Below, in pieces: positions 2,899 through 16,211 of a stretch of 29,628 nucleotides of DNA. Source of the DNA: Thermotogota bacterium (GTDB lineage: Bacteria > Bipolaricaulota > Bipolaricaulia > UBA7950 > UBA9294); NCBI GenBank assembly GCA_039679545.1, contig JBDKUT010000032.1, positions 1 to 29,628 of the forward strand. Direction: 5' to 3'. Position numbers and translations under genes: made by a program. Each line of letters begins with the position of its first letter. The stretch's first letter is position 1. The notes under the pieces were generated by a model. It searched no databases. It was not told the DNA's origin and saw only the letters and a program-made list of their open reading frames with translations.

Positions 2899-4031
2899 GC
2901 CGTGTCTTCACTCCCCCTAGAACAACCTGCGCAGCTCCGAGCAACTCTGTCAGCAATTCGCACTGCCGCCTTGCCGTCCCCAAAGGGATTCGGCGCGTTG
3001 GCCATCTTGGCGTATATCTTAGGATCATGGAGAAGCCGCCGGACTTCCGCGACGATTGTCGCAGGATCAGTCCCCACAAGCTTCCCAGCTCCGCTCTCAA
3101 GAAGCTCTACTCGTTCCGTGACTTCGCGCGTGACTAGTACGGGCTTGGAAAGCGAAGGAGCCTCCTCCTGAATTCCTCCCGAGTCCGTCAGAACGAGGTA
3201 CGCGCGCTCCATGAGGTGCACGAACTCCACATAGTCCAGCGGCTCCAGAAGGTGAATCCGCTCCTCACGCCCCAAGAGCTCGTGGACAGGCCCGCGTACA
3301 TTGGGGTTGAGATGAACCGGATAGACGATCTCTACATCGGACTCCAGGCGGACGATCTCAAGCAGAGCCTTGCAGATGTTTCGGAGTCCGTCTCCGAAGC
3401 TCTCCCTGCGGTGGCCGGTAATGAGAACGATGCGGCGATCTGCTGGGACATGCTCCAGTTCAGGGATTGCGCGGCGCGCGGTTCTCTTCAGAGTCCAGAG
3501 AAGAGCGTCAATCACCGTATTCCCCGTGACCTCGACCTGAGCCTCCGGCACTCCCTCACGCACGAGGTTCTGCTTCGCGCGTGGGGTTGAAGCGAAGTAT
3601 AGGTCAGCCAGAACGTCGACGATACGCCGGTTGGCCTCCTCGGGAAACGGACTGTCCTTGCGATCGGTTCGTAGACCTGCTTCGACATGCCCGACGGGCA
3701 CGTGCAGGTAGAACGCCGCTAGCGCTCCAGCCATGGCAGACGTTGTGTCTCCCTGAACCAAGACGAGATCGGGACTCTCGGTCTGGATAACGTCGCGGAG
3801 TCCGAGAAGTGCCGCGGACGTCACGTCAAACAGCGTCTGGCCCGGTTTCATTAGGTCGAGATCTCGGTCGGCGTGAATCTCGAAAAGCCGAAGGAATGGG
3901 TCGAGCATCTCCCGATGCTGACCGGTGATGCACACGCACGACTCCATGTCTGCACGATGCTCCAGCTCGTGGAGAACCGGAGCCATCTTGATTGCCTCGG
4001 GTCGTGTGCCAAAGATCGAGAGCACTCTCAT
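2895..4031 (-). CDS. wecB: UDP-N-acetylglucosamine 2-epimerase (non-hydrolysing)
   Basis: FGTRPEAIKMAP, TGQHREM, QGDTTS, GHVEAGLRT, FPEEANR, TDSGGIQEEAP, NPFGDG. Confidence 0.97.
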   Translation of the reverse strand: MRVLSIFGTRPEAIKMAPVLHELEHRADMESCVCITGQHREMLDPFLRLFEIHADRDLDLMKPGQTLFDVTSAALLGLRDVIQTESPDLVLVQGDTTSAMAGALAAFYLHVPVGHVEAGLRTDRKDSPFPEEANRRIVDVLADLYFASTPRAKQNLVREGVPEAQVEVTGNTVIDALLWTLKRTARRAIPELEHVPADRRIVLITGHRRESFGDGLRNICKALLEIVRLESDVEIVYPVHLNPNVRGPVHELLGREERIHLLEPLDYVEFVHLMERAYLVLTDSGGIQEEAPSLSKPVLVTREVTERVELLESGAGKLVGTDPATIVAEVRRLLHDPKIYAKMANAPNPFGDGKAAVRIADRVARSCAGCSRGSEDTA

Positions 4032-8482: not shown

Positions 8483-9466
8483 CTACGTCCACCCTCGCCG
8501 CTCGCGCTTGAGGCGCCACTCCCAGGCGGTCGTCACCATGGATTCGAGATCCGGGTGGCGCGGACGCCAGCCGAGGGCGGCCTGGGCCTTTCGGACGTCG
8601 GCGACAAGCGCGGCCGGATCGCCGGGCCGCCGTGGCGCCGTGACGGCAGGAATCGTCCGGCCGGTGATGCGTCGACACCCCTCGACGACCTCGCTCACCG
8701 TGTGGCCGGCACCGGTCCCGAGGTTGTACGCCCCTCCCGGCAGACCCTGGCGGAGCCGATCGAGCGCCGCGACGTGGGCGTCGGCGAGGTCGCTCACGTG
8801 GACGAAGTCGCGCATGCAGGTCCCGTCGGGCGTGTCGTAGTCCGACCCGAAGAACTCAAGGCGCTTCTTCCGCCCGAGCGCGACCTCAAGAGCGAGGGGG
8901 ATCAGGTGCGTCTCCGGATCGTGCCACTCTCCGAGCTCGAGCTCTGGATCCGCGCCCGCAGCGTTGAAGTAGCGAAGGGACACGGACCCGATCCCGTCGG
9001 CGGCTCTGGTCTCAAGAACCTGCTCGAAGAGCCACTTGCTGCGCCCGTAGGGGGTCTTCGGATTCTTCGGGTCTTCCTCGCGAATCGGAAGGCGTGTGGG
9101 ATCGCCGTAGACGGACGCGCTGGAGCTGAAGACAAAGTGCCGCACGCGGTGGCGGATCGCCTCCTCGAGCAGGCGGAGGCTGCCGACGACGTTCTGGCGG
9201 TAGCACTCGACCGGATCGGCCAGGGACCTGGCAATGTTCGTCTCGGCGGCGAAGTGCAGCACGGCGTCGATCGGGCCGCTCGCGAAGACCCGGCGGAGCG
9301 CCTCAGGGTCGAGGAGGTCGCCCAACACGAACTCCTTAGAGAGGACCAGCTCTCGGCGCCCTTGCGAGAGGTTGTCGAAGACGACGACCTCGTCGCCGTG
9401 CTCGAGAAGCGCCTTGACGGCGTGGGAACCGACGTACCCTGCTCCGCCCGTTACGAGGACTCTCAT
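8483..9466 (-). CDS. galE: UDP-glucose 4-epimerase
   Basis: VLVTGGAGYVGSH, FSSSASVYG, YGRSK, LRYFNAAGA, PETHLIP, DGTCMRDFVHV, RRPGDP. Confidence 0.95.
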   Translation of the reverse strand: MRVLVTGGAGYVGSHAVKALLEHGDEVVVFDNLSQGRRELVLSKEFVLGDLLDPEALRRVFASGPIDAVLHFAAETNIARSLADPVECYRQNVVGSLRLLEEAIRHRVRHFVFSSSASVYGDPTRLPIREEDPKNPKTPYGRSKWLFEQVLETRAADGIGSVSLRYFNAAGADPELELGEWHDPETHLIPLALEVALGRKKRLEFFGSDYDTPDGTCMRDFVHVSDLADAHVAALDRLRQGLPGGAYNLGTGAGHTVSEVVEGCRRITGRTIPAVTAPRRPGDPAALVADVRKAQAALGWRPRHPDLESMVTTAWEWRLKRERRGWT

Positions 9467-9508
9467 GACCCGTCCAGGATACCCGGCGCGGCGTTGGTTT
9501 CGGAAAGG

Positions 9509-9667
9509 CGTTCGTAGATGGACGTAGCGTCGCACCTTGGTACGACGTTCGTGAACGGACGTAGCGTCTATGCGCTCGGTTCACACGCGAGAGCGCACCG
9601 CACCTTGCGTGCGACGTTCGTGAACGTCGGGGTCGAGGTGAACGTCGGAGACAAGCTCCGACGCTAC
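9509..9667. repeat. REP-like cluster A: three GTAG-CGTC...GACG-TTC hairpin units, two on + and one on -
   Basis: GTAG(9524)-cgtcgcacc-tt-ggtacgacg; GTAG(9561)-cgtc-[tgcgctc..gagcgca hairpin]-gcac..gtgcgacg; minus-strand GTAG(9667)-cgtcggag-cttgt-ctccgacg-ttc. Confidence 0.85.
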
Positions 9668-9734
9668 AGCGCCATAAGCGGCCGACACTACGGCCCCATA
9701 GACCGCCGACGCCGTGGGACGAACGCCACAACCA

Positions 9735-10088
9735 TCAAACTGGGTGTTCCAAGAAGTCGGCTATCTTCGACAGGATGGCCGACAAGCGCTGAGACGAGAT
9801 CTCGCCGAGTACGCCCGCGATCATCGTCCCTTCGAGCGTGGCAAGCTTGCCGGTTCTGATGACGGAGCGCTCCTTGAGCCCGGACTCGTCGAAGTCGACG
9901 TCGGTTACCTCGACTACCTCATCCCAGTTCGCGACGGCGTGCCTAAGTTGGGATGTGATTGCACAGACCAGCCAGTCGTTGAACGGGCCTGGCAGCTGGG
10001 CTAAGAGAAGGACGGGCCGATACTTCCCCTGCTGCAAATCCGCCTGCGGGAACCGAACGAGGGCAACATGGCCCGGCTGGGGTCTCAT
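9735..10088 (-). CDS. PemK/MazF-family endoribonuclease toxin
   Basis: PGHVALVRFPQAD...GKYRPVLLL...VCAITS...GLKERSVIRTGKLAT; 4-nt overlap with the upstream small gene. Confidence 0.88.
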   Translation of the reverse strand: MRPQPGHVALVRFPQADLQQGKYRPVLLLAQLPGPFNDWLVCAITSQLRHAVANWDEVVEVTDVDFDESGLKERSVIRTGKLATLEGTMIAGVLGEISSQRLSAILSKIADFLEHPV

Positions 10089-10303
10089 GGTGTCGGCCGG
10101 AGGTCAGCGAGCGAGTACTCCGCTTCTTCGCGATCATTCCAGAACTCGAATGACCGGCTGCCAAGCGCGAAGCTTCCCCATGAGTTCCCGGCCTCGTCCA
10201 CTAGCTTCCTCTCCTGGATGAATGTGACGAAGTCATAGACTTGCTCAAGGACATCCTCCGGAAGGCTCTCGATTCTCCTGATCAACTGGTCCCTGACTCT
10301 CAT
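10085..10303 (-). CDS. Putative antitoxin (DUF2281-like), 72 aa
   Basis: IESLPEDVLEQVYDFVTFI motif, acidic tail FWNDREEAEY, GGAGG RBS before the ATG at 10303, coupled to the PemK gene. Confidence 0.78.
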   Translation of the reverse strand: MRVRDQLIRRIESLPEDVLEQVYDFVTFIQERKLVDEAGNSWGSFALGSRSFEFWNDREEAEYSLADLRPTP

Positions 10304-10403
10304 AGTGTTCCTCCCCGCCAGCATCCACTGAGTCCACGATACCACGCCTGACCGACACAGGCCACTGGCAGGAGATCCAGCTCACCTTTACATTGCACCC
10401 GTG

Positions 10404-10519
10404 TGTGCGACGTTCGTAGACGGACGTAGCGTCTATGCGCTCGGTTCACACGCGAGAGCGCCAATGCGTTCGGTTCTGCCATGAGAACGCACCACCATCT
10501 GCGTGCGACGTTCGTGAAC
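10404..10519. repeat. REP-like cluster B with two nested hairpins
   Basis: gtgcgacgttcgtagacggac-GTAG(10426)-cgtc-[gcgctc..gagcgc]-[tgcgttc..gaacgca]-..gtgcgacgttcgtgaac; near-identical to 9543-9625. Confidence 0.85.
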
Positions 10520-10626
10520 AGGCCCATGCGCCCCCGCTTCGGGTAGACTCACTCCCGCAGGGCGGGTCGGCTGGTGTTCTGTGCCCTCGCCCTCGGAAGC
10601 GACTGAGTGCAAGAGAGGAGGGTGGG

Positions 10627-11994
10627 TTGTCGCATACAGAGTCGATCGATCGCTACATCGCGGCCGTGACGGACGCGCTGTCGAAGCTGGATCGCCAGGC
10701 GATCGGCGAGGTCGTCGACGAGTTCCTTCGCGCGTGGCGCGAGGGTGCGACCCTCTTCTTCGCGGGGAACGGAGGCAGCGCGGCCACGGCCGCCCACTTC
10801 GTCGTCGACATGAGCAAGGGGACCGCCGTCCCAGGGCGCCCGCCGCTTCGCGCCATCTCGCTGACCGACAACCTCCCGAGCCTGACGGCGTGGGCCAACG
10901 ACTCCTCGTACGACATCGCGATGTCCGAGCGACTGCGCGCACTCGCCTCGCCCAACGACGTCCTCGTCGCGATCTCTTGCAGCGGCACCTCGCGCAACGT
11001 CCTCCACGCCGTGCAGACCGCTCACGCCCTCGGCTTGCGAACGATCGGGCTCGCCGGCCGGGACGGGGGTCGGCTGAAGGACATGGTCGACGTCTGTGTC
11101 TGCGCCCCCGCGGAGTGGATCGGCCAGCAGGAGGACCTCCACATGGTCCTCGACCACGCCATCACCCTTGCGCTCCGCGACGCCATGCTCGCGGAGTCGA
11201 CGCGCATCGACGGAACGACCGTGAAAGCGATGATCCTCGCCGCGGGGGAGGGGGTCCGGCTGCGCCCCCTCACCAACACATACGCCAAGGCCGTGCTCCC
11301 GGTCGGCGGCAAGCCCGCCCTTGAGCACGTCCTTGAATGGTTGCGCTCCTACGGCATTCGCGACGTCGGCATCAACCTACACCATTGCCCCGAGAGCATT
11401 ACATCCTGCTTCGGCGATGGGGAGCGCCTCGGGATGCGGCTCACGTACAGCCGCGAGCCCGAGCTCCTCGGCACCGCGGGCGGGGTTCGCGCGCTCGCCT
11501 CGTTCCTCGACCGCCGGTTCGTCCTCGTGTACGGCGACGTCTTGACCGATCTCAACTTGGGCGACCTCGTGCAGTACCACGCCAAGAAGGTTGCGTCTCT
11601 ACCCGCGGCCGCACCCGCACTCACGATGGCACTCTGGAAGACCGAGCGGCCGTCGTCCGAGGTCGGCATCGTCGAGGTCGACGCAGGCGGCCGCGTCACG
11701 CGGTTTGTGGAGAAGCCGTCGCCGGGGACGACCTTCTCCAACCTGTCGAACGCGGGAGTCCTCGTCCTGGAACCCGGAATCCTGGACCACATCCCGGCAG
11801 GGCGAGCCGTCGACTTCGGACAAGACGTCTTCCCCGCGCTTCTCAAACGCGGCGTCCCGATGTTCGGCTGGCGCATCCCAGACGGCGCCTACCTCGCGGA
11901 CTACGGAACTCTCGAGTCCTACGCCAGGGTTCAGGTCGAGTGGCCTCCAAAGCGCGGTCGACGGGACGGAGTTCATGAACACCGCAGCGGTTAA
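10627..11994 (+). CDS. gmhA: Fusion of phosphoheptose isomerase (GmhA, SIS domain) and sugar-1-phosphate nucleotidyltransferase (HddC-like)
   Basis: N-terminal GNGGSAATAAH, TAWAND, ISCSGTSRNV, QEDLH; C-terminal KAMILAAGEGVRLRPLT, EPELLGTAGG, YGDV, FVEKP; TTG start at 10627 after AGGAGG (ORF-track start lies inside repeat B). Confidence 0.88.
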   Translation: MSHTESIDRYIAAVTDALSKLDRQAIGEVVDEFLRAWREGATLFFAGNGGSAATAAHFVVDMSKGTAVPGRPPLRAISLTDNLPSLTAWANDSSYDIAMSERLRALASPNDVLVAISCSGTSRNVLHAVQTAHALGLRTIGLAGRDGGRLKDMVDVCVCAPAEWIGQQEDLHMVLDHAITLALRDAMLAESTRIDGTTVKAMILAAGEGVRLRPLTNTYAKAVLPVGGKPALEHVLEWLRSYGIRDVGINLHHCPESITSCFGDGERLGMRLTYSREPELLGTAGGVRALASFLDRRFVLVYGDVLTDLNLGDLVQYHAKKVASLPAAAPALTMALWKTERPSSEVGIVEVDAGGRVTRFVEKPSPGTTFSNLSNAGVLVLEPGILDHIPAGRAVDFGQDVFPALLKRGVPMFGWRIPDGAYLADYGTLESYARVQVEWPPKRGRRDGVHEHRSG

Positions 11995-12574
11995 CGCCAA
12001 CTCGAGTACCCTCACAACGGTGTTCCTCGACCGGGACGGCGTGATCAACCGCAAGCCCCCGGCGGGCGAGTACGTCGCGCGCTGGTCGGAGTTCGAGCTC
12101 CTGCCCGGCGTTCCCGCCGCCATCGCTCGGATGACGCGCGCCGGACTGCGCGTGGTCGTCGCGACCAACCAGCGCGGCATCGCGAAAGGCCTCGTCGAGA
12201 AAGCCGAGGTCGAGAGGATCCACCACCGAATGGTCGAGACCCTGGCGAAGTCGGGCGGTCGGATCGACGCGGTCTACTACTGCCCGCACGATGACGGGGA
12301 GTGCGACTGCCGCAAGCCCGGTGTCGGCCTCTTCCGGGAAGCAGAGCGCGAACATCCCGACATCGACTTCGCGAAGTCCGTCGTCATCGGCGACTCGCTG
12401 AGTGACATCCAAGCCGGAAACGCCATCGGGGCTCACACAATCTTGATCGAGTCCGAGCCCGAGACGCCGCAAGGCGCTACGAAGAGAGCGACGGAACTCG
12501 GGTTGAGGGTGGACGCTGTCGTCGGGTCGCTGGCGGAAGCGGCGGATTGGATCCTTGGGCGACAGCGTTCGTAG
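11975..12574 (+). CDS. gmhB: D,D-heptose 1,7-bisphosphate phosphatase (HAD family)
   Basis: VFLDRDGVIN, TNQRGI, CPHDDGECDCRKP zinc motif, IGDSLSDIQAG. Confidence 0.93.
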   Translation: MNTAAVNANSSTLTTVFLDRDGVINRKPPAGEYVARWSEFELLPGVPAAIARMTRAGLRVVVATNQRGIAKGLVEKAEVERIHHRMVETLAKSGGRIDAVYYCPHDDGECDCRKPGVGLFREAEREHPDIDFAKSVVIGDSLSDIQAGNAIGAHTILIESEPETPQGATKRATELGLRVDAVVGSLAEAADWILGRQRS

Positions 12575-12600
12575 GATTCGTTGAGTTCGTTGGGTCCGTA
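12567..12600 (+). repeat. 9-nt tandem repeat (gttcgtagg attcgttga gttcgttgg gtccgta)
   Basis: Read directly; the first unit contains the gmhB TAG stop. Confidence 0.75.
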
Positions 12601-12607
12601 GTCCATG

Positions 12608-12726
12608 GACGGACGTAGCGTCTATGCGCTCGGTCCTCACGCGAGAGCGCACCACCTTCAGTGTGCGACGTTCGTGGATGGGCGTAGCGTCGCACCTTGG
12701 TGCGACGTTCGGAACGTCGGAGACAA
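12608..12726. repeat. REP-like cluster C
   Basis: GTAG(12615)-cgtc-[tgcgctc..gagcgca]-..gtgcgacgttc; GTAG(12684)-cgtcgcacc-tt-ggtgcgacg (perfect 9-bp stem); then gaacgtcggagacaa, a truncated copy of the last unit of cluster A. Confidence 0.85.
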
Positions 12727-12746
12727 TGAACACCGCGGATCAGGCC

Positions 12747-12768
12747 AACTCAACGAACCCCACGAACC
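12747..12768 (-). repeat. 9-nt tandem repeat (aactcaacg aaccccacg aacc)
   Basis: Reverse-complement relative of 12567-12600, downstream of hicA. Confidence 0.7.
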
Positions 12769-12802
12769 GCAGGCTTGGGGCCCAGCGTGCGCCTGGAACC
12801 CA

Positions 12803-13036
12803 CTAGCGAAGAAGGGCGTTGAGAGCGTCCGGCGTGATGTCGGCGTCGTTGAGGATGGCACGAACGACCTTGGGATGGAGCGTCTTGCGCGCGTGAGTCG
12901 GAAGGGTCACCCTCTTCCCGGCCGCATTCTTGAGGATCATGTGACTGCCGCTCTGCCGAACGGCCACGAACCCTGCATGCTCGAGAGCCCGTCGCATCTC
13001 CGCTGCTGTGATGCGGGGAGTCCGCGCGTCGGTCAC
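12803..13036 (-). CDS. hicA: HicA-family toxin (mRNA interferase)
   Basis: ALEHAGFVAVRQSGSHMIL...RVTLPTH...ILNDADI. Confidence 0.92.
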   Translation of the reverse strand: MTDARTPRITAAEMRRALEHAGFVAVRQSGSHMILKNAAGKRVTLPTHARKTLHPKVVRAILNDADITPDALNALLR

Positions 13037-13257
13037 ACGGTCACTTCCAGCGACGTTAGGCTGACAGAGAGATCCTGAGGAATCTCCTCGCCGGACTGGA
13101 GGCGATCTTCGATGTGAAGGTGAAGGGCATCTCGGATCTCAGCTAGAACATCCTCGTACGTCTCCGCTTGTGCGTAGCACCCCTGGAGCTGGGGGCAGAA
13201 GGCGAAGTAGCCGTCCTCATCTCTTTCAATCACCACAGTGCAACGGTACTGGGCCAT
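13033..13257 (-). CDS. hicB: HicB-family antitoxin, short form without a DNA-binding domain
   Basis: VVIERDEDGYFAFCPQLQGCYAQAETYEDVLAEIRDA; AAGGAGG RBS; 4-nt overlap with hicA. Confidence 0.92.
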   Translation of the reverse strand: MAQYRCTVVIERDEDGYFAFCPQLQGCYAQAETYEDVLAEIRDALHLHIEDRLQSGEEIPQDLSVSLTSLEVTV

Positions 13258-13323
13258 CAGGGGCCTCCTTCCTCGCGCTTGAGGACCGCATGGTTCGATT
13301 ATAGCGGGGGGCCCCGAGTGAAG

Positions 13324-13436
13324 GGGCTCGCCGGGTTCGCGGGGTTGCGGAACCCCAAGAACACAATGAACCCAACGAACCGGCTGTGATCCCGGTGCGC
13401 CGTCCAGCAGATCGAACCCTACGAACTCAACGAACT
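13324..13436. repeat. 9-nt tandem repeats, including an inverted arrangement
   Basis: gggctcgcc gggttcgcg gggttgcgg | aaccccaag aacacaatg aacccaacg aacc (13351-13381); aaccctacg aactcaacg aact (13415-13436). Confidence 0.75.
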
Positions 13437-13476
13437 GGAATAACTCGCCGAGAGAACGATCCGCCCTAGGGCGGAG

Positions 13477-14457
13477 TTAGTCGATCGTGTAGATTCGGCT
13501 GCCCTCGGGCGCGAAGGCGAACGGGACGCGGCGCAGTCCGGGAAGGGCGCGGAGAATCCTGTCTTGGCGCTCGGGGGCCGCGTAGAGGAGCAGGAATCCG
13601 CCGCCGCCGGCGCCGAGGATCTTTCCCCCGATGGCTCCCCGCGCACGCGCGGTTTCGTACCACTCGTCGATTTGCGGATTCGTGATCCCCTCCGCAAGCT
13701 GCCGCTTGAGCTGCCATCCTGCGTCGAGCAGCCTTCCTAGCTCTTCGGGGCGGTCGGCTTCAAGGGCATCGCGCAGGTCGTAGGCCATACGCGCCATCTG
13801 CACGAGCGCTTTCGAGTTCGCGTTGCCGGCGCGCGTGTTCTCGCCTTGCTGCTTCAAGACTGCGTCGCTCTCCCGGGCCATCCCGGTGTGGAGGAGCATC
13901 AGGCTTCTCTCCAGCCGATCCTTCGTCTCCTGTCGGCAGCGGACGGGTTCGACGAGAACGCGTTCGTCGGGCAGGAACCGAATGAACTGCATTCCGCCGA
14001 ACGCCGCGATGTACTGGTCCTGCTTCCCGATCGGCTTGCCGCATCGCTCGATCTCGATCTCGCACGCCTCGTTCGCCAACCACGCGGCGTCCGCCGGCTC
14101 ACCGCGATGGGCGCGGAAAGCGTTGAGGAGGCCCACGGTGTACGAACTCGACGATCCGAGTCCCGTGCCGTGCGCCGGCACGTCGGAGATGGACGCGATC
14201 TCGACGCCGGCGTCGATGCCCACCGCGGTGAGCGCTTCGCGGACGAGCTCGTGACGCAGCTCGCCCACGGAGTCGACGACCTCGGTGATGGAGTAGCTCA
14301 CACGAACCTTGCGGTCGAACTTCTCGTTGACGCAAATGAAGATGTACTTGTCGATCGCAGTGCTCAGGACCGCACCCTCGTGGTCTCTGTAGAAGGCGGG
14401 AAGGTCGGTGCCGCCGCCGACGAAGCTGATCCGCAAAGGCGTTCGGGAGACGATCAT
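13477..14457 (-). CDS. hddA: D-glycero-alpha-D-manno-heptose-7-phosphate kinase (GHMP family)
   Basis: MIVSRTPLRISFVGGGTD, GTGLGSSSS, PIGKQDQY, GGKILGAGGGGF. Confidence 0.9.
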   Translation of the reverse strand: MIVSRTPLRISFVGGGTDLPAFYRDHEGAVLSTAIDKYIFICVNEKFDRKVRVSYSITEVVDSVGELRHELVREALTAVGIDAGVEIASISDVPAHGTGLGSSSSYTVGLLNAFRAHRGEPADAAWLANEACEIEIERCGKPIGKQDQYIAAFGGMQFIRFLPDERVLVEPVRCRQETKDRLERSLMLLHTGMARESDAVLKQQGENTRAGNANSKALVQMARMAYDLRDALEADRPEELGRLLDAGWQLKRQLAEGITNPQIDEWYETARARGAIGGKILGAGGGGFLLLYAAPERQDRILRALPGLRRVPFAFAPEGSRIYTID

Positions 14458-15843: not shown

Positions 15844-16023
15844 CTAGCGGTCGGCCAGGAGCTTCAGGATATGCTTCGCCAAGGGCTCCTTGATCTCCTG
15901 ATGACGGGGAACAGGCTGGCAAACTCTGGTCCTTGGGTTCTGATACCAGTCGTGGCGCGCTCCGCGCCGCAGGAGGATGCACCCCTGCCTCTCGATCTCC
16001 CTAACAAGATCTCGCCGATTCAT
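15844..16023 (-). CDS. hicA: HicA-family toxin, 59 aa (missing from the ORF track)
   Basis: Manual translation MNRRDLVREIERQGCILLRRGARHDWYQNPRTRVCQPVPRHQEIKEPLAKHILKLLADR*; 4-nt overlap with hicB. Confidence 0.9.
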   Translation of the reverse strand: MNRRDLVREIERQGCILLRRGARHDWYQNPRTRVCQPVPRHQEIKEPLAKHILKLLADR

Positions 16024-16211
16024 GAAACCTGGAGCTCGGCCACGCGGCGGGCTTCGGGAATGCTCCCTCCGGCCAGTTCCTGATAGAGGTCCCTGAGGTT
16101 ATCAGCCAGCTCCTCGTGAGTCGCGCCCTGCGTCCAGTAGTCCGGGAACTCCAGCAAGTACCCGATCCAGGCGCCATCATGCTCCCAATGCACGTACTGC
16201 AGGGTCTTCAT
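16020..16211 (-). CDS. hicB: HicB-family antitoxin, short form, 63 aa
   Basis: MKTLQYVHWEHDGAWIGYLLEFPDYWTQGATHEELADNLRDLY. Confidence 0.88.
   Translation of the reverse strand: MKTLQYVHWEHDGAWIGYLLEFPDYWTQGATHEELADNLRDLYQELAGGSIPEARRVAELQVS

Follow-up and report, generated by a model that had tools for sequence, protein, structure and literature searches.

Retained GTAG-type REP arrays around a PemK toxin–antitoxin pair at a likely former RAYT site in the glycan locus of a Bipolaricaulota bacterium

The 29,628-nt contig JBDKUT010000032.1 (assembly GCA_039679545.1), referred to below in its whole length as the window, belongs to a member of Ca. Bipolaricaulota and carries a glycan locus with the gene order galE, PemK toxin–antitoxin (TA) pair, fused gmhA-hddC, gmhB, hicBA, hddA and rmuC. 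Three clusters of repeats, A (9509–9667), B (10404–10519) and C (12608–12726), had been proposed in a previous sequence-only reading to delimit cassette-like modules of this locus, and all three were found at these positions. With a modest degree of confidence, we favor the explanation that clusters A and B are arrays of GTAG-type repetitive extragenic palindromic (REP) sequences at the site of a gene for a tyrosine transposase associated with REPs (RAYT), that this gene was replaced by the PemK pair, and that the REPs now serve as passive homology for recombination by the host. The genome of the window (G000) is a metagenome-assembled genome (MAG) of 2.35 Mb, 65% GC and 163 contigs, 93.6% complete. 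It was compared with the congeners G001, G002 (85% complete), G003, G004 and G005, with the metagenome contig L154, and with the members G044 (closed), G047, G050, G104 and G105 of the genus g23; the class-wide scan covered 184 genomes. Evidence from read runs came from 8 of the 21 listed, all as assembled contigs (Logan), and X1, perhaps the source sample, was not counted as support.

A RAYT gene flanked by the same REPs, which the sequence-only reading had suggested looking for, was found in the relatives at the orthologous site. In the orientation of the window, both G003 and L154 read galE, REPs, RAYT, REPs and gmhA-hddC. The order in G004 was REPs, RAYT, REPs and gmhA-hddC, with a contig start resembling by eye the sequence upstream of galE, and in G001, from the contig end, it was REPs, a HEPN-MNT pair, REPs, RAYT, a long REP array and gmhA-hddC. 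The contigs of G004 and G001 stop at or before galE, and that of G005 begins inside gmhA; among 80 loci obtained by scanning metagenomes with gmhA-hddC, one was close. Since the RAYT of the congeners sits between these REPs just upstream of gmhA-hddC, clusters A and B were recognized as the two arms of a REPtron. The alignment of G000 with G003 extended on the left through cluster A and its sub-repeats and on the right from a headless REP onward. The window had been said to lack a RAYT, and indeed the slot holds the PemK pair instead, a module with a GC content of 0.59 compared with 0.67–0.69 in galE and the gmh block.

Furthermore, the 22 bases that separate the pemK stop codon from the last sub-repeat were compared with the 3' end of RAYT. 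The resemblance gave P values of 0.002–0.004 for G003 and G004 and was weak for G001 (P 0.05–0.07), in a post hoc test whose boundaries were picked once the alignment had been seen. This similarity suggests that a RAYT scar of about 20 bp probably remains 3' of pemK. The sequence-only reading had proposed testing whether module breakpoints fall in the repeats; the left one of the PemK module appears instead to lie within the last RAYT codons, and the right one lies in the headless REP. A two-step model, in which a TA pair inserts 3' of RAYT as in G001 and a REP–REP deletion then removes RAYT cleanly, was also considered and fits less well given the probable scar 3' of pemK. In the gmhA-hddC tree, G000 was placed with the RAYT-bearing G001 and G003 and apart from the RAYT-bearing G004 (support 83/93, unstarred), and the RAYT identities of 93 and 85% paralleled the gmhA-hddC identities of 92 and 79%. 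Hence, RAYT was likely the ancestral occupant of the slot, and in G000 it was likely lost, with the PemK pair taking its place and the REP arms being kept.

The cognate RAYT is the shorter, second Y1 protein of the relatives and is embedded in these REPs. It matched NF047646 with 104.9 and 103 bits (cut-off 80), its residues H64, H66 and Y123 were invariant in 14 of 14 aligned copies, and its best match in the PDB was 4ER8, the TnpAREP of E. coli (E 1.6e-7). The gene was single-copy in 14 of the 184 genomes, all of them with at least 8 REP matches, and was found in none of the 101 genomes without the REP pattern, a comparison in which kin among the genomes are not independent. Its stop codon was TAG in 13 of the 14 copies; in 12 of them that TAG belonged to a GTAG, and several of these GTAGs were the head of a REP or of a REP-derived unit. 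In the closed genome G044, 55 of 65 REPs lay within 15 kb of RAYT, and REPs piled up near the gene have also been described for other REPtrons (PMC2817692). According to previous accounts, TnpAREP binds the GTAG-REP on single-stranded DNA and cleaves and recombines at C|T, and the REPs multiply near the gene (PMC3333891, PMC8266576, PMC2817692).

Neither a cognate RAYT nor a DNA remnant of it was detected in G000 by genome-wide blastn or profile search. The sole Y1 gene of this genome (L001, G000 C150:25448-28450) was rejected as a partner of the REPs: it encodes a TIRYT-type protein of 287 aa, its inverted repeats of about 22 bp are different, and no REP lies nearby. Y1 genes in open frames of similar length were common across the family. 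Additionally, in several genomes of the family f6 RAYT has for neighbors a gene of the PorV/PorQ kind and a large protein whose sorting tail is like that of the type IX secretion system (T9SS), as at 3741–7561 of L133 (G044) and at the orthologous loci.

The repeats themselves share a real frame, as had been claimed: GTAGCGTC-N5-90-CGACGTT occurred six times in the window, compared with a mean of 0.03 and a maximum of 1 in 100 third-order Markov simulations. The unit consists of GTAG, a hairpin with the outer stem CGTC(G)...(C)GACG, and TT. Short units measure 26–28 nt and long ones about 59 nt, and a 63-nt form was found elsewhere in G000. Every intact unit begins with GTAG, and this was the commonest tetramer preceding such hairpins (470 counts, the next reaching 99, in loci that overlap). 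Three variable stem pairs were Watson–Crick in 47, 54, and 49 of 56 distinct variants, which are related, so that these counts of compensatory change do not give a probability. Since the pairing exceeded that of every shuffle (maxima 39, 42, and 39), a stem of 8 bp with a loop of 5 nt was assigned. On folding, the short units gave z values of -3.6 and -4.5, and the long units were no better than shuffles. The stretch gaacgtcggagacaa, reported as common to clusters A and C, occurred at 9640 and 12712 only. Cluster A extends to about 9715, beyond the limit first given, and one of its units is on the minus strand.

The assignment of the repeats to the GTAG/RAYT type, already made in the sequence-only reading, was supported by GTAG followed by a hairpin and by the cognate RAYT flanked by the same REPs in relatives. 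Being extragenic, dispersed, and arranged in inverted doublets and arrays, the repeats fit the GTAG REP, BIME (bacterial interspersed mosaic element) and REPIN definition as given in PMC3733652, PMC3333891, and PMC8266576. A 14-base REP pattern matched 83 of the 184 genomes, with 0–2 matches per genome for the reversed control. G000 contains nine REP clusters in total, three in the window and six elsewhere. The annotated ones among these six adjoin ogt, accC, genes for a PHP protein and an M20 peptidase, what by eye looks like a tRNA gene, and a MoCo/oxidoreductase pair. The observation that clusters lie only at module junctions therefore held within the window but not genome-wide, and no TA pair was found beside any of the six other clusters. 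Tandem repeats of about 30 nt resembling the insert of the long REP, without a GTAG head, were seen at G000 C153:21950-22300 (L008).

In the explanation favored here, RAYT would have generated the REPs and scattered them around the gene that encodes it; this would also account for cluster C. A one-off illegitimate event would then have swapped RAYT for the TA pair, with the left break in the last RAYT codons and the right one in a REP. Finally, the REP arms and the conserved galE and gmhA flanks would provide passive homology through which host recombination could pass the module between congeners. Cluster C is a secondary copy, absent from 4 of 4 congeners, and it is enclosed by two 9-mer tandem repeats in inverted orientation, which are unrelated to the REPs; the far side of hicBA is also bounded by a 9-mer tandem repeat and not by a REP.

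Exchange between species was suggested by the runs X8 and X10, which stem from two other studies. In these, the PemK module (9683–10417) was 97.1–97.6% identical to the window and the hicBA module 97.0–97.3%, while the backbone was lower, with 86–94% for galE, 90–92% for gmhA-hddC, and 94–95% for hddA. Because both modules are more alike than the flanking backbone, these identities point to a recent movement of the modules between species. The shared PemK stretch started and stopped at REP remnants, and in X10 the depth of the PemK module was 21 compared with 32–39 for the backbone, a difference that would fit a polymorphic slot or a second carrier. In the contigs of the eight runs, joints that skip a module had sides of 22–32 nt inside the repeats, and no trustworthy excision joint was seen.

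A passive role of the REPs is supported by the sequences of PemK and hicBA homologues located elsewhere, which lack conserved REP ends. None of seven hicBA homologues (67–72% DNA identity) was flanked by REPs. The PemK homologues, at 63–69%, had the promoter region in common and not REP ends, and their surroundings were TA clusters, 7-mer repeats, or rmuC on one side with an epimerase gene on the other; the antitoxin partner was present in 4 of the 4 relatives drawn. Element ends common to the modules of G000 were not seen in four PemK and seven hicBA homologues at other sites. Ordinary recombination, and not an integron-like machine for cassettes, is the likely origin of the swap. Cassette exchange driven by an enzyme is a less likely and unproven alternative.

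Modules also varied at REP-bounded slots of two other genera. In the gap between the sugar transferase gene BacT and PglD, G061 carried REP-RAYT-REP and G032 carried REP-MNT/HepT-REP-RHH/PIN-REP, while G065 had a degenerate REP with MNT/HepT, G001 had REPs with a shortened HepT module, and the gap was empty in 7 of the 11 distinct loci drawn (12 matches in all); there, either RAYT or TA may have come first. Downstream of endoV in the genus g23, one hicBA (72–95% identical) occupied three slots (one in G044, one in G047 and G105, and one in G050), DUF433/DUF5615 was found in two slots, and G044 carries a three-gene block in inverted orientation, one end of which adjoins a REP array. Two of the three hicBA copies had a common REP junction. 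TA pairs adjoined RAYT in 3 of 14 cognate loci (HEPN/MNT in G001, hicBA in G044, and AbrB-PIN in G104), and several contigs end near the gene.

The proposal that REPs let modules be gained or lost therefore agrees with the TA modules, which vary in REP-bounded slots here and in those two genera, but not with the sugar genes, which are fixed. The gmhA-hddC region, described earlier as separate genes, is one fused open reading frame (ORF). It was present in G000 and in four of the five congeners, and was not found in G002; in other members of the family, gmhA and hddC were separate genes in a different order. In 4 of the 4 congeners holding it, the fused gene was followed by gmhB and a convergent hddA, with no REP between the latter two. 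Hence, the sugar block is a fixed backbone and not a REP-delimited cassette, contrary to the earlier suggestion. TA pairs also entered the locus without REPs, and at four other REP sites common to the congeners (accC/ffh, the M20 peptidase gene, ogt, and the PHP gene) no change of cargo was seen, several of them being at contig ends.

Part of this evidence would also fit an active enzyme. RAYT could bind same-strand REPs, cut at C|T and move the REP-flanked cargo as a single-strand circle in the peel-and-paste manner of IS200/IS605, with the REP arrays as attachment sites and the TA pairs as non-autonomous cargo REPtrons, an explanation that we consider unlikely. The TA pairs next to RAYT in G001, G044, and G104, the recurrent g23 modules with the inverted block of G044, the alternation at the BacT/PglD gap, and the stretch bounded by REP remnants on both sides in X8 and X10 all speak for it. 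CT preceded GTAG in 20 of 76 outermost REP heads, sites that are not independent, and TnpAREP is reported to cleave and recombine single-stranded DNA in vitro at C|T far from a REP (PMC3333891, PMC8266576). Nevertheless, the module ends are not conserved, as described above for the hicBA homologues and for those of PemK, mostly located among 7-mers or in TA clusters; the left break seemingly falls inside RAYT, and G000 is without the enzyme. TA genes beside REPs were also sparse: among toxin genes, 2 of 10 in G000, 1 of 9 in G001, 0 of 2 in G003, and 0 of 6 in G047 stood beside one, in a genome-wide search for five families, HepT not among them, from which PIN matches in ORFs of 355–367 aa were left out as likely non-TA in G000, G001, and G003. 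Among 80 loci of related RAYTs (76 from other lineages), 48 had GTAG/GTGG hairpins on both sides and only one had a toxin match within 1 kb by tblastn with Bipolaricaulota queries, which is of limited sensitivity. IS110, considered as a mobilizer, was found in G001 and G044 and not in G000, G003, or G004.

Alternatively, the REPs could be uninvolved, with TA pairs and several repeat families independently colonizing permissive gaps of the glycan locus and their adjacency being a by-product; this seems to us doubtful. The gap between rmuC and a pyridoxamine-oxidase-like gene (PPOX) is in line with it, since G000 carries a second hicBA-like pair there (15844–16211) without a REP, G001 has nine REPs without TA, and G005 is empty. 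The same applies to the gmhB/hddA gap, with a different hicBA (42–43% identical) without a repeat in G001, 7-mers in G003, and 9-mers in G004 and G005, these last three having no hicBA there. In G047 (L147) and G050 (L143), dense arrays of the unrelated repeats CCCTCACC/GGGGAGAG took up intergenic slots that contain REPs in congeners, among them that of RAYT in G047, and the many TA pairs of the G044 glycan locus were mostly without REPs. Independent colonization fails, however, to explain a PemK pair at the exact position of RAYT together with a probable RAYT scar, and a 97%-identical stretch ending at REP remnants in two other samples.

An integron-style array, in which the sugar genes would be cassettes and a tyrosine recombinase would act on the repeats as on attC sites, has nothing in its favor but the alternating appearance of repeats and small modules in the window, and is contradicted by the absence of RYYYAAC or GTTRRRY boxes on both strands of the three clusters, of TIGR02249 matches above cut-off in five of five genomes (best 77 bits versus 265; four of the five are incomplete MAGs), and of any Rfam match in the window, by the gmh block fixed in 4 of 4 congeners, and by the arrangement of the repeats in inverted doublets and not as one site per gene, all of which make it highly improbable. 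At G000 C8:39886-40446 (L340), with a REP cluster some 9 kb away, a tyrosine-recombinase fragment was seen that scores well below the IntI cut-off.

Several results weigh against replacement of RAYT followed by a passive role of its REPs. Because the MAG of G000 is incomplete and fragmented, a RAYT elsewhere in the genome could be missed. The tree node of G000 lacks strong support, and the scar comparison, made after the fact, gave a weak result for G001. The Logan contigs break at REPs, so that the 97% modules in X8 and X10 may sit at other locations. Toxin genes of G044 were close to REPs (3 of 9 within 600 bp, P = 3e-4 against uniform placement, a generous null), and TA pairs adjoin RAYT at 3 of the 14 cognate loci and change slots within a single genus. 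An active role of RAYT would yield these patterns too.

The features of the locus are listed in Table 1, the gene calls in the window being upheld by Pfam and NCBIfam. No tRNA or tmRNA was found in the window, and no sigma-70 promoter or terminator signal exceeded shuffles in 9400–13500. At 11961 the runs X2 and X3 carry one extra base; it would alter the final codons of the fused ORF, and the window probably contains an assembly error there.

Table 1. Features of the galE–hddA region in window coordinates.
Feature	Position	Strand	Remarks
galE, UDP-glucose 4-epimerase	8483..9466	-	TIGR01179 above cut-off; 85% DNA identity to G003; backbone gene on the left of the slot
Cluster A, short REP (GTAG + hairpin)	9524..9550	+	
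Cluster A, long REP	9561..9619	+	Short form with an insert of ~31 nt after the first 8 bases
Cluster A, inverted REP	9640..9667	-	Doublet with + units; folding z = -4.5
Two degenerate 24-nt REP-derived sub-repeats	9668..9715	-	Also at the RAYT 3' flank of G003
Probable decayed scar of the last ~7 RAYT codons	9713..9734	-	Anchored alignment
PemK/MazF-family toxin gene	9735..10088	-	PF02452; occupies the likely former RAYT slot
Putative antitoxin gene	10085..10303	-	Weak DUF2281 match below cut-off; small partner upstream of PemK
Headless REP remnant	10395..10417	+	PemK module ends here on the right (breakpoint)
Cluster B, long REP with internal partial duplication	10426..10513	+	Orthologous to the RAYT 5'-side array of congeners
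Fused gmhA-hddC-like gene (SIS + nucleotidyltransferase)	10627..11994	+	Pfam/NCBIfam; one ORF
gmhB-like HAD phosphatase gene	11975..12574	+	Pfam, NCBIfam
9-mer tandem repeat, left arm of inverted pair	12567..12598	+	Present at the same junction in G004 and G005
Cluster C: long REP, short REP, headless inverted REP	12615..12726	+	
9-mer tandem repeat, right arm of the pair enclosing cluster C	12736..12767	-	
hicB-hicA pair in the gmhB/hddA slot	12803..13257	-	Pfam
Further 9-mer tandem runs (two) in the hicB–hddA interval	13362..13435	-	
hddA-like GHMP kinase gene	13477..14436	-	Pfam, NCBIfam; same heptose pathway, outside the REP clusters

The 9-mer repeats were not confined to the window. Tandem runs, often as inverted pairs, were also seen in contigs C45, C21, C34, C48, and C130 of G000, and C45, with several such runs, was rich in TA pairs (ParE twice, HicBA, PemK twice, and Fic). 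In relatives, 7-mer tandem runs played a similar part. The stretch 12727–12767, just after cluster C, resembles 11975–12013, the first 40 or so bases of gmhB, and by eye the N-terminal extension of gmhB looks derived from the 9-mer repeat. A DUF559 gene was observed in G047 and G109; a DUF559-like remnant noticed by eye at the RAYT slot of G047 was dropped after a family search and tblastn failed to confirm it. In g23, duplicated very short Lys/Pro-rich ORFs with their own ribosome-binding sites were seen by eye upstream of tauE (L133, 9700–10250, and L147, 14900–15450).

A broader proposal would be that a domesticated RAYT runs a REP-based cassette exchange in Bipolaricaulota, with REP arrays as attachment sites and TA pairs (PemK, HicBA, HEPN/MNT, VapBC, and DUF433/DUF5615) as cargo that displaces RAYT and jumps between slots and species. 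We judge this improbable; if true, it would represent a counterpart of integrons driven by an HUH enzyme and a concrete host-level function of a RAYT. The host role of RAYTs, and whether anything but REPs gets moved by them, is treated as an open question in PMC5581495 and in bioRxiv 2021.07.10.451892. One genus displays states that can be read as before, intermediate, and after (REP-RAYT-REP, REP-TA-REP-RAYT-REP, and REP-TA-REP), a second slot in another genus has the same alternation of RAYT or TA, and a module has apparently moved recently between species. Cargo mobilization by RAYT is thereby made testable, with a short enzyme and defined substrates.

Integron cassette arrays (attC/IntI) often carry TA cassettes, and the window resembles them in its small promoter-bearing TA modules between repeats; unlike them, it has no attC boxes, no IntI, inverted doublets, and fixed sugar genes. 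The TIRtron/TIRYT system (PMC3733652; subclass 2.1 of PMC6006769) is fitted by the Y1 gene of contig C150, with its inverted repeats GGGG[AT][CG]A[CG], and not by the REPs of the window, as no GTAGCGTC REP lies near that gene and it is not their partner. As REPtrons are characterized in PMC2817692, PMC3333891, PMC8266576, and PMC6006769, the locus family shares with them the GTAG at the foot of a hairpin, the inverted doublets and arrays, and a REP at or next to the stop codon, as well as a single-copy Y1 HUH gene with Y---NP and WQ..D[RH]..R and REPs concentrated near it. The perfect 8-bp stem right after GTAG resembles the group 3 REP described for Stenotrophomonas, and the D/R residues of RAYT match Quentin subclasses 2.5 and 2.7 (PMC6006769), a match by residues only and not by a tree with reference RAYTs. 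In contrast to known REPtrons, this is a new sequence family in Ca. Bipolaricaulota, its copy number is low (nine clusters), and RAYT itself is gone from G000. Literature searches found no account of TA pairs lying between REP arms that had been kept, nor of REPs from Bipolaricaulota, although the REP tables in the supplements of PMC3733652 and PMC6006769 could list the family.

The closest parallel is that of E. coli, in which, in 24 strains, hicAB took the place of the REPtron and of its BIMEs (PMC3333891; cited in PMC6006769), and tnpAREP was deleted with the BIMEs left behind in seven strains (PMC3333891). Here, both REP arms stayed around the TA pair, whereas the TA operon of E. coli displaced the BIMEs along with the gene, and several TA families (PemK, HEPN/MNT, MNT/HepT, VapBC, and HicBA) were found, recurring in three genera. 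If the role of the REPs is passive, the hicAB case of E. coli would thus be extended to a recurring pattern, with REP arms as landing and exchange sites for TA pairs in an uncultured phylum.

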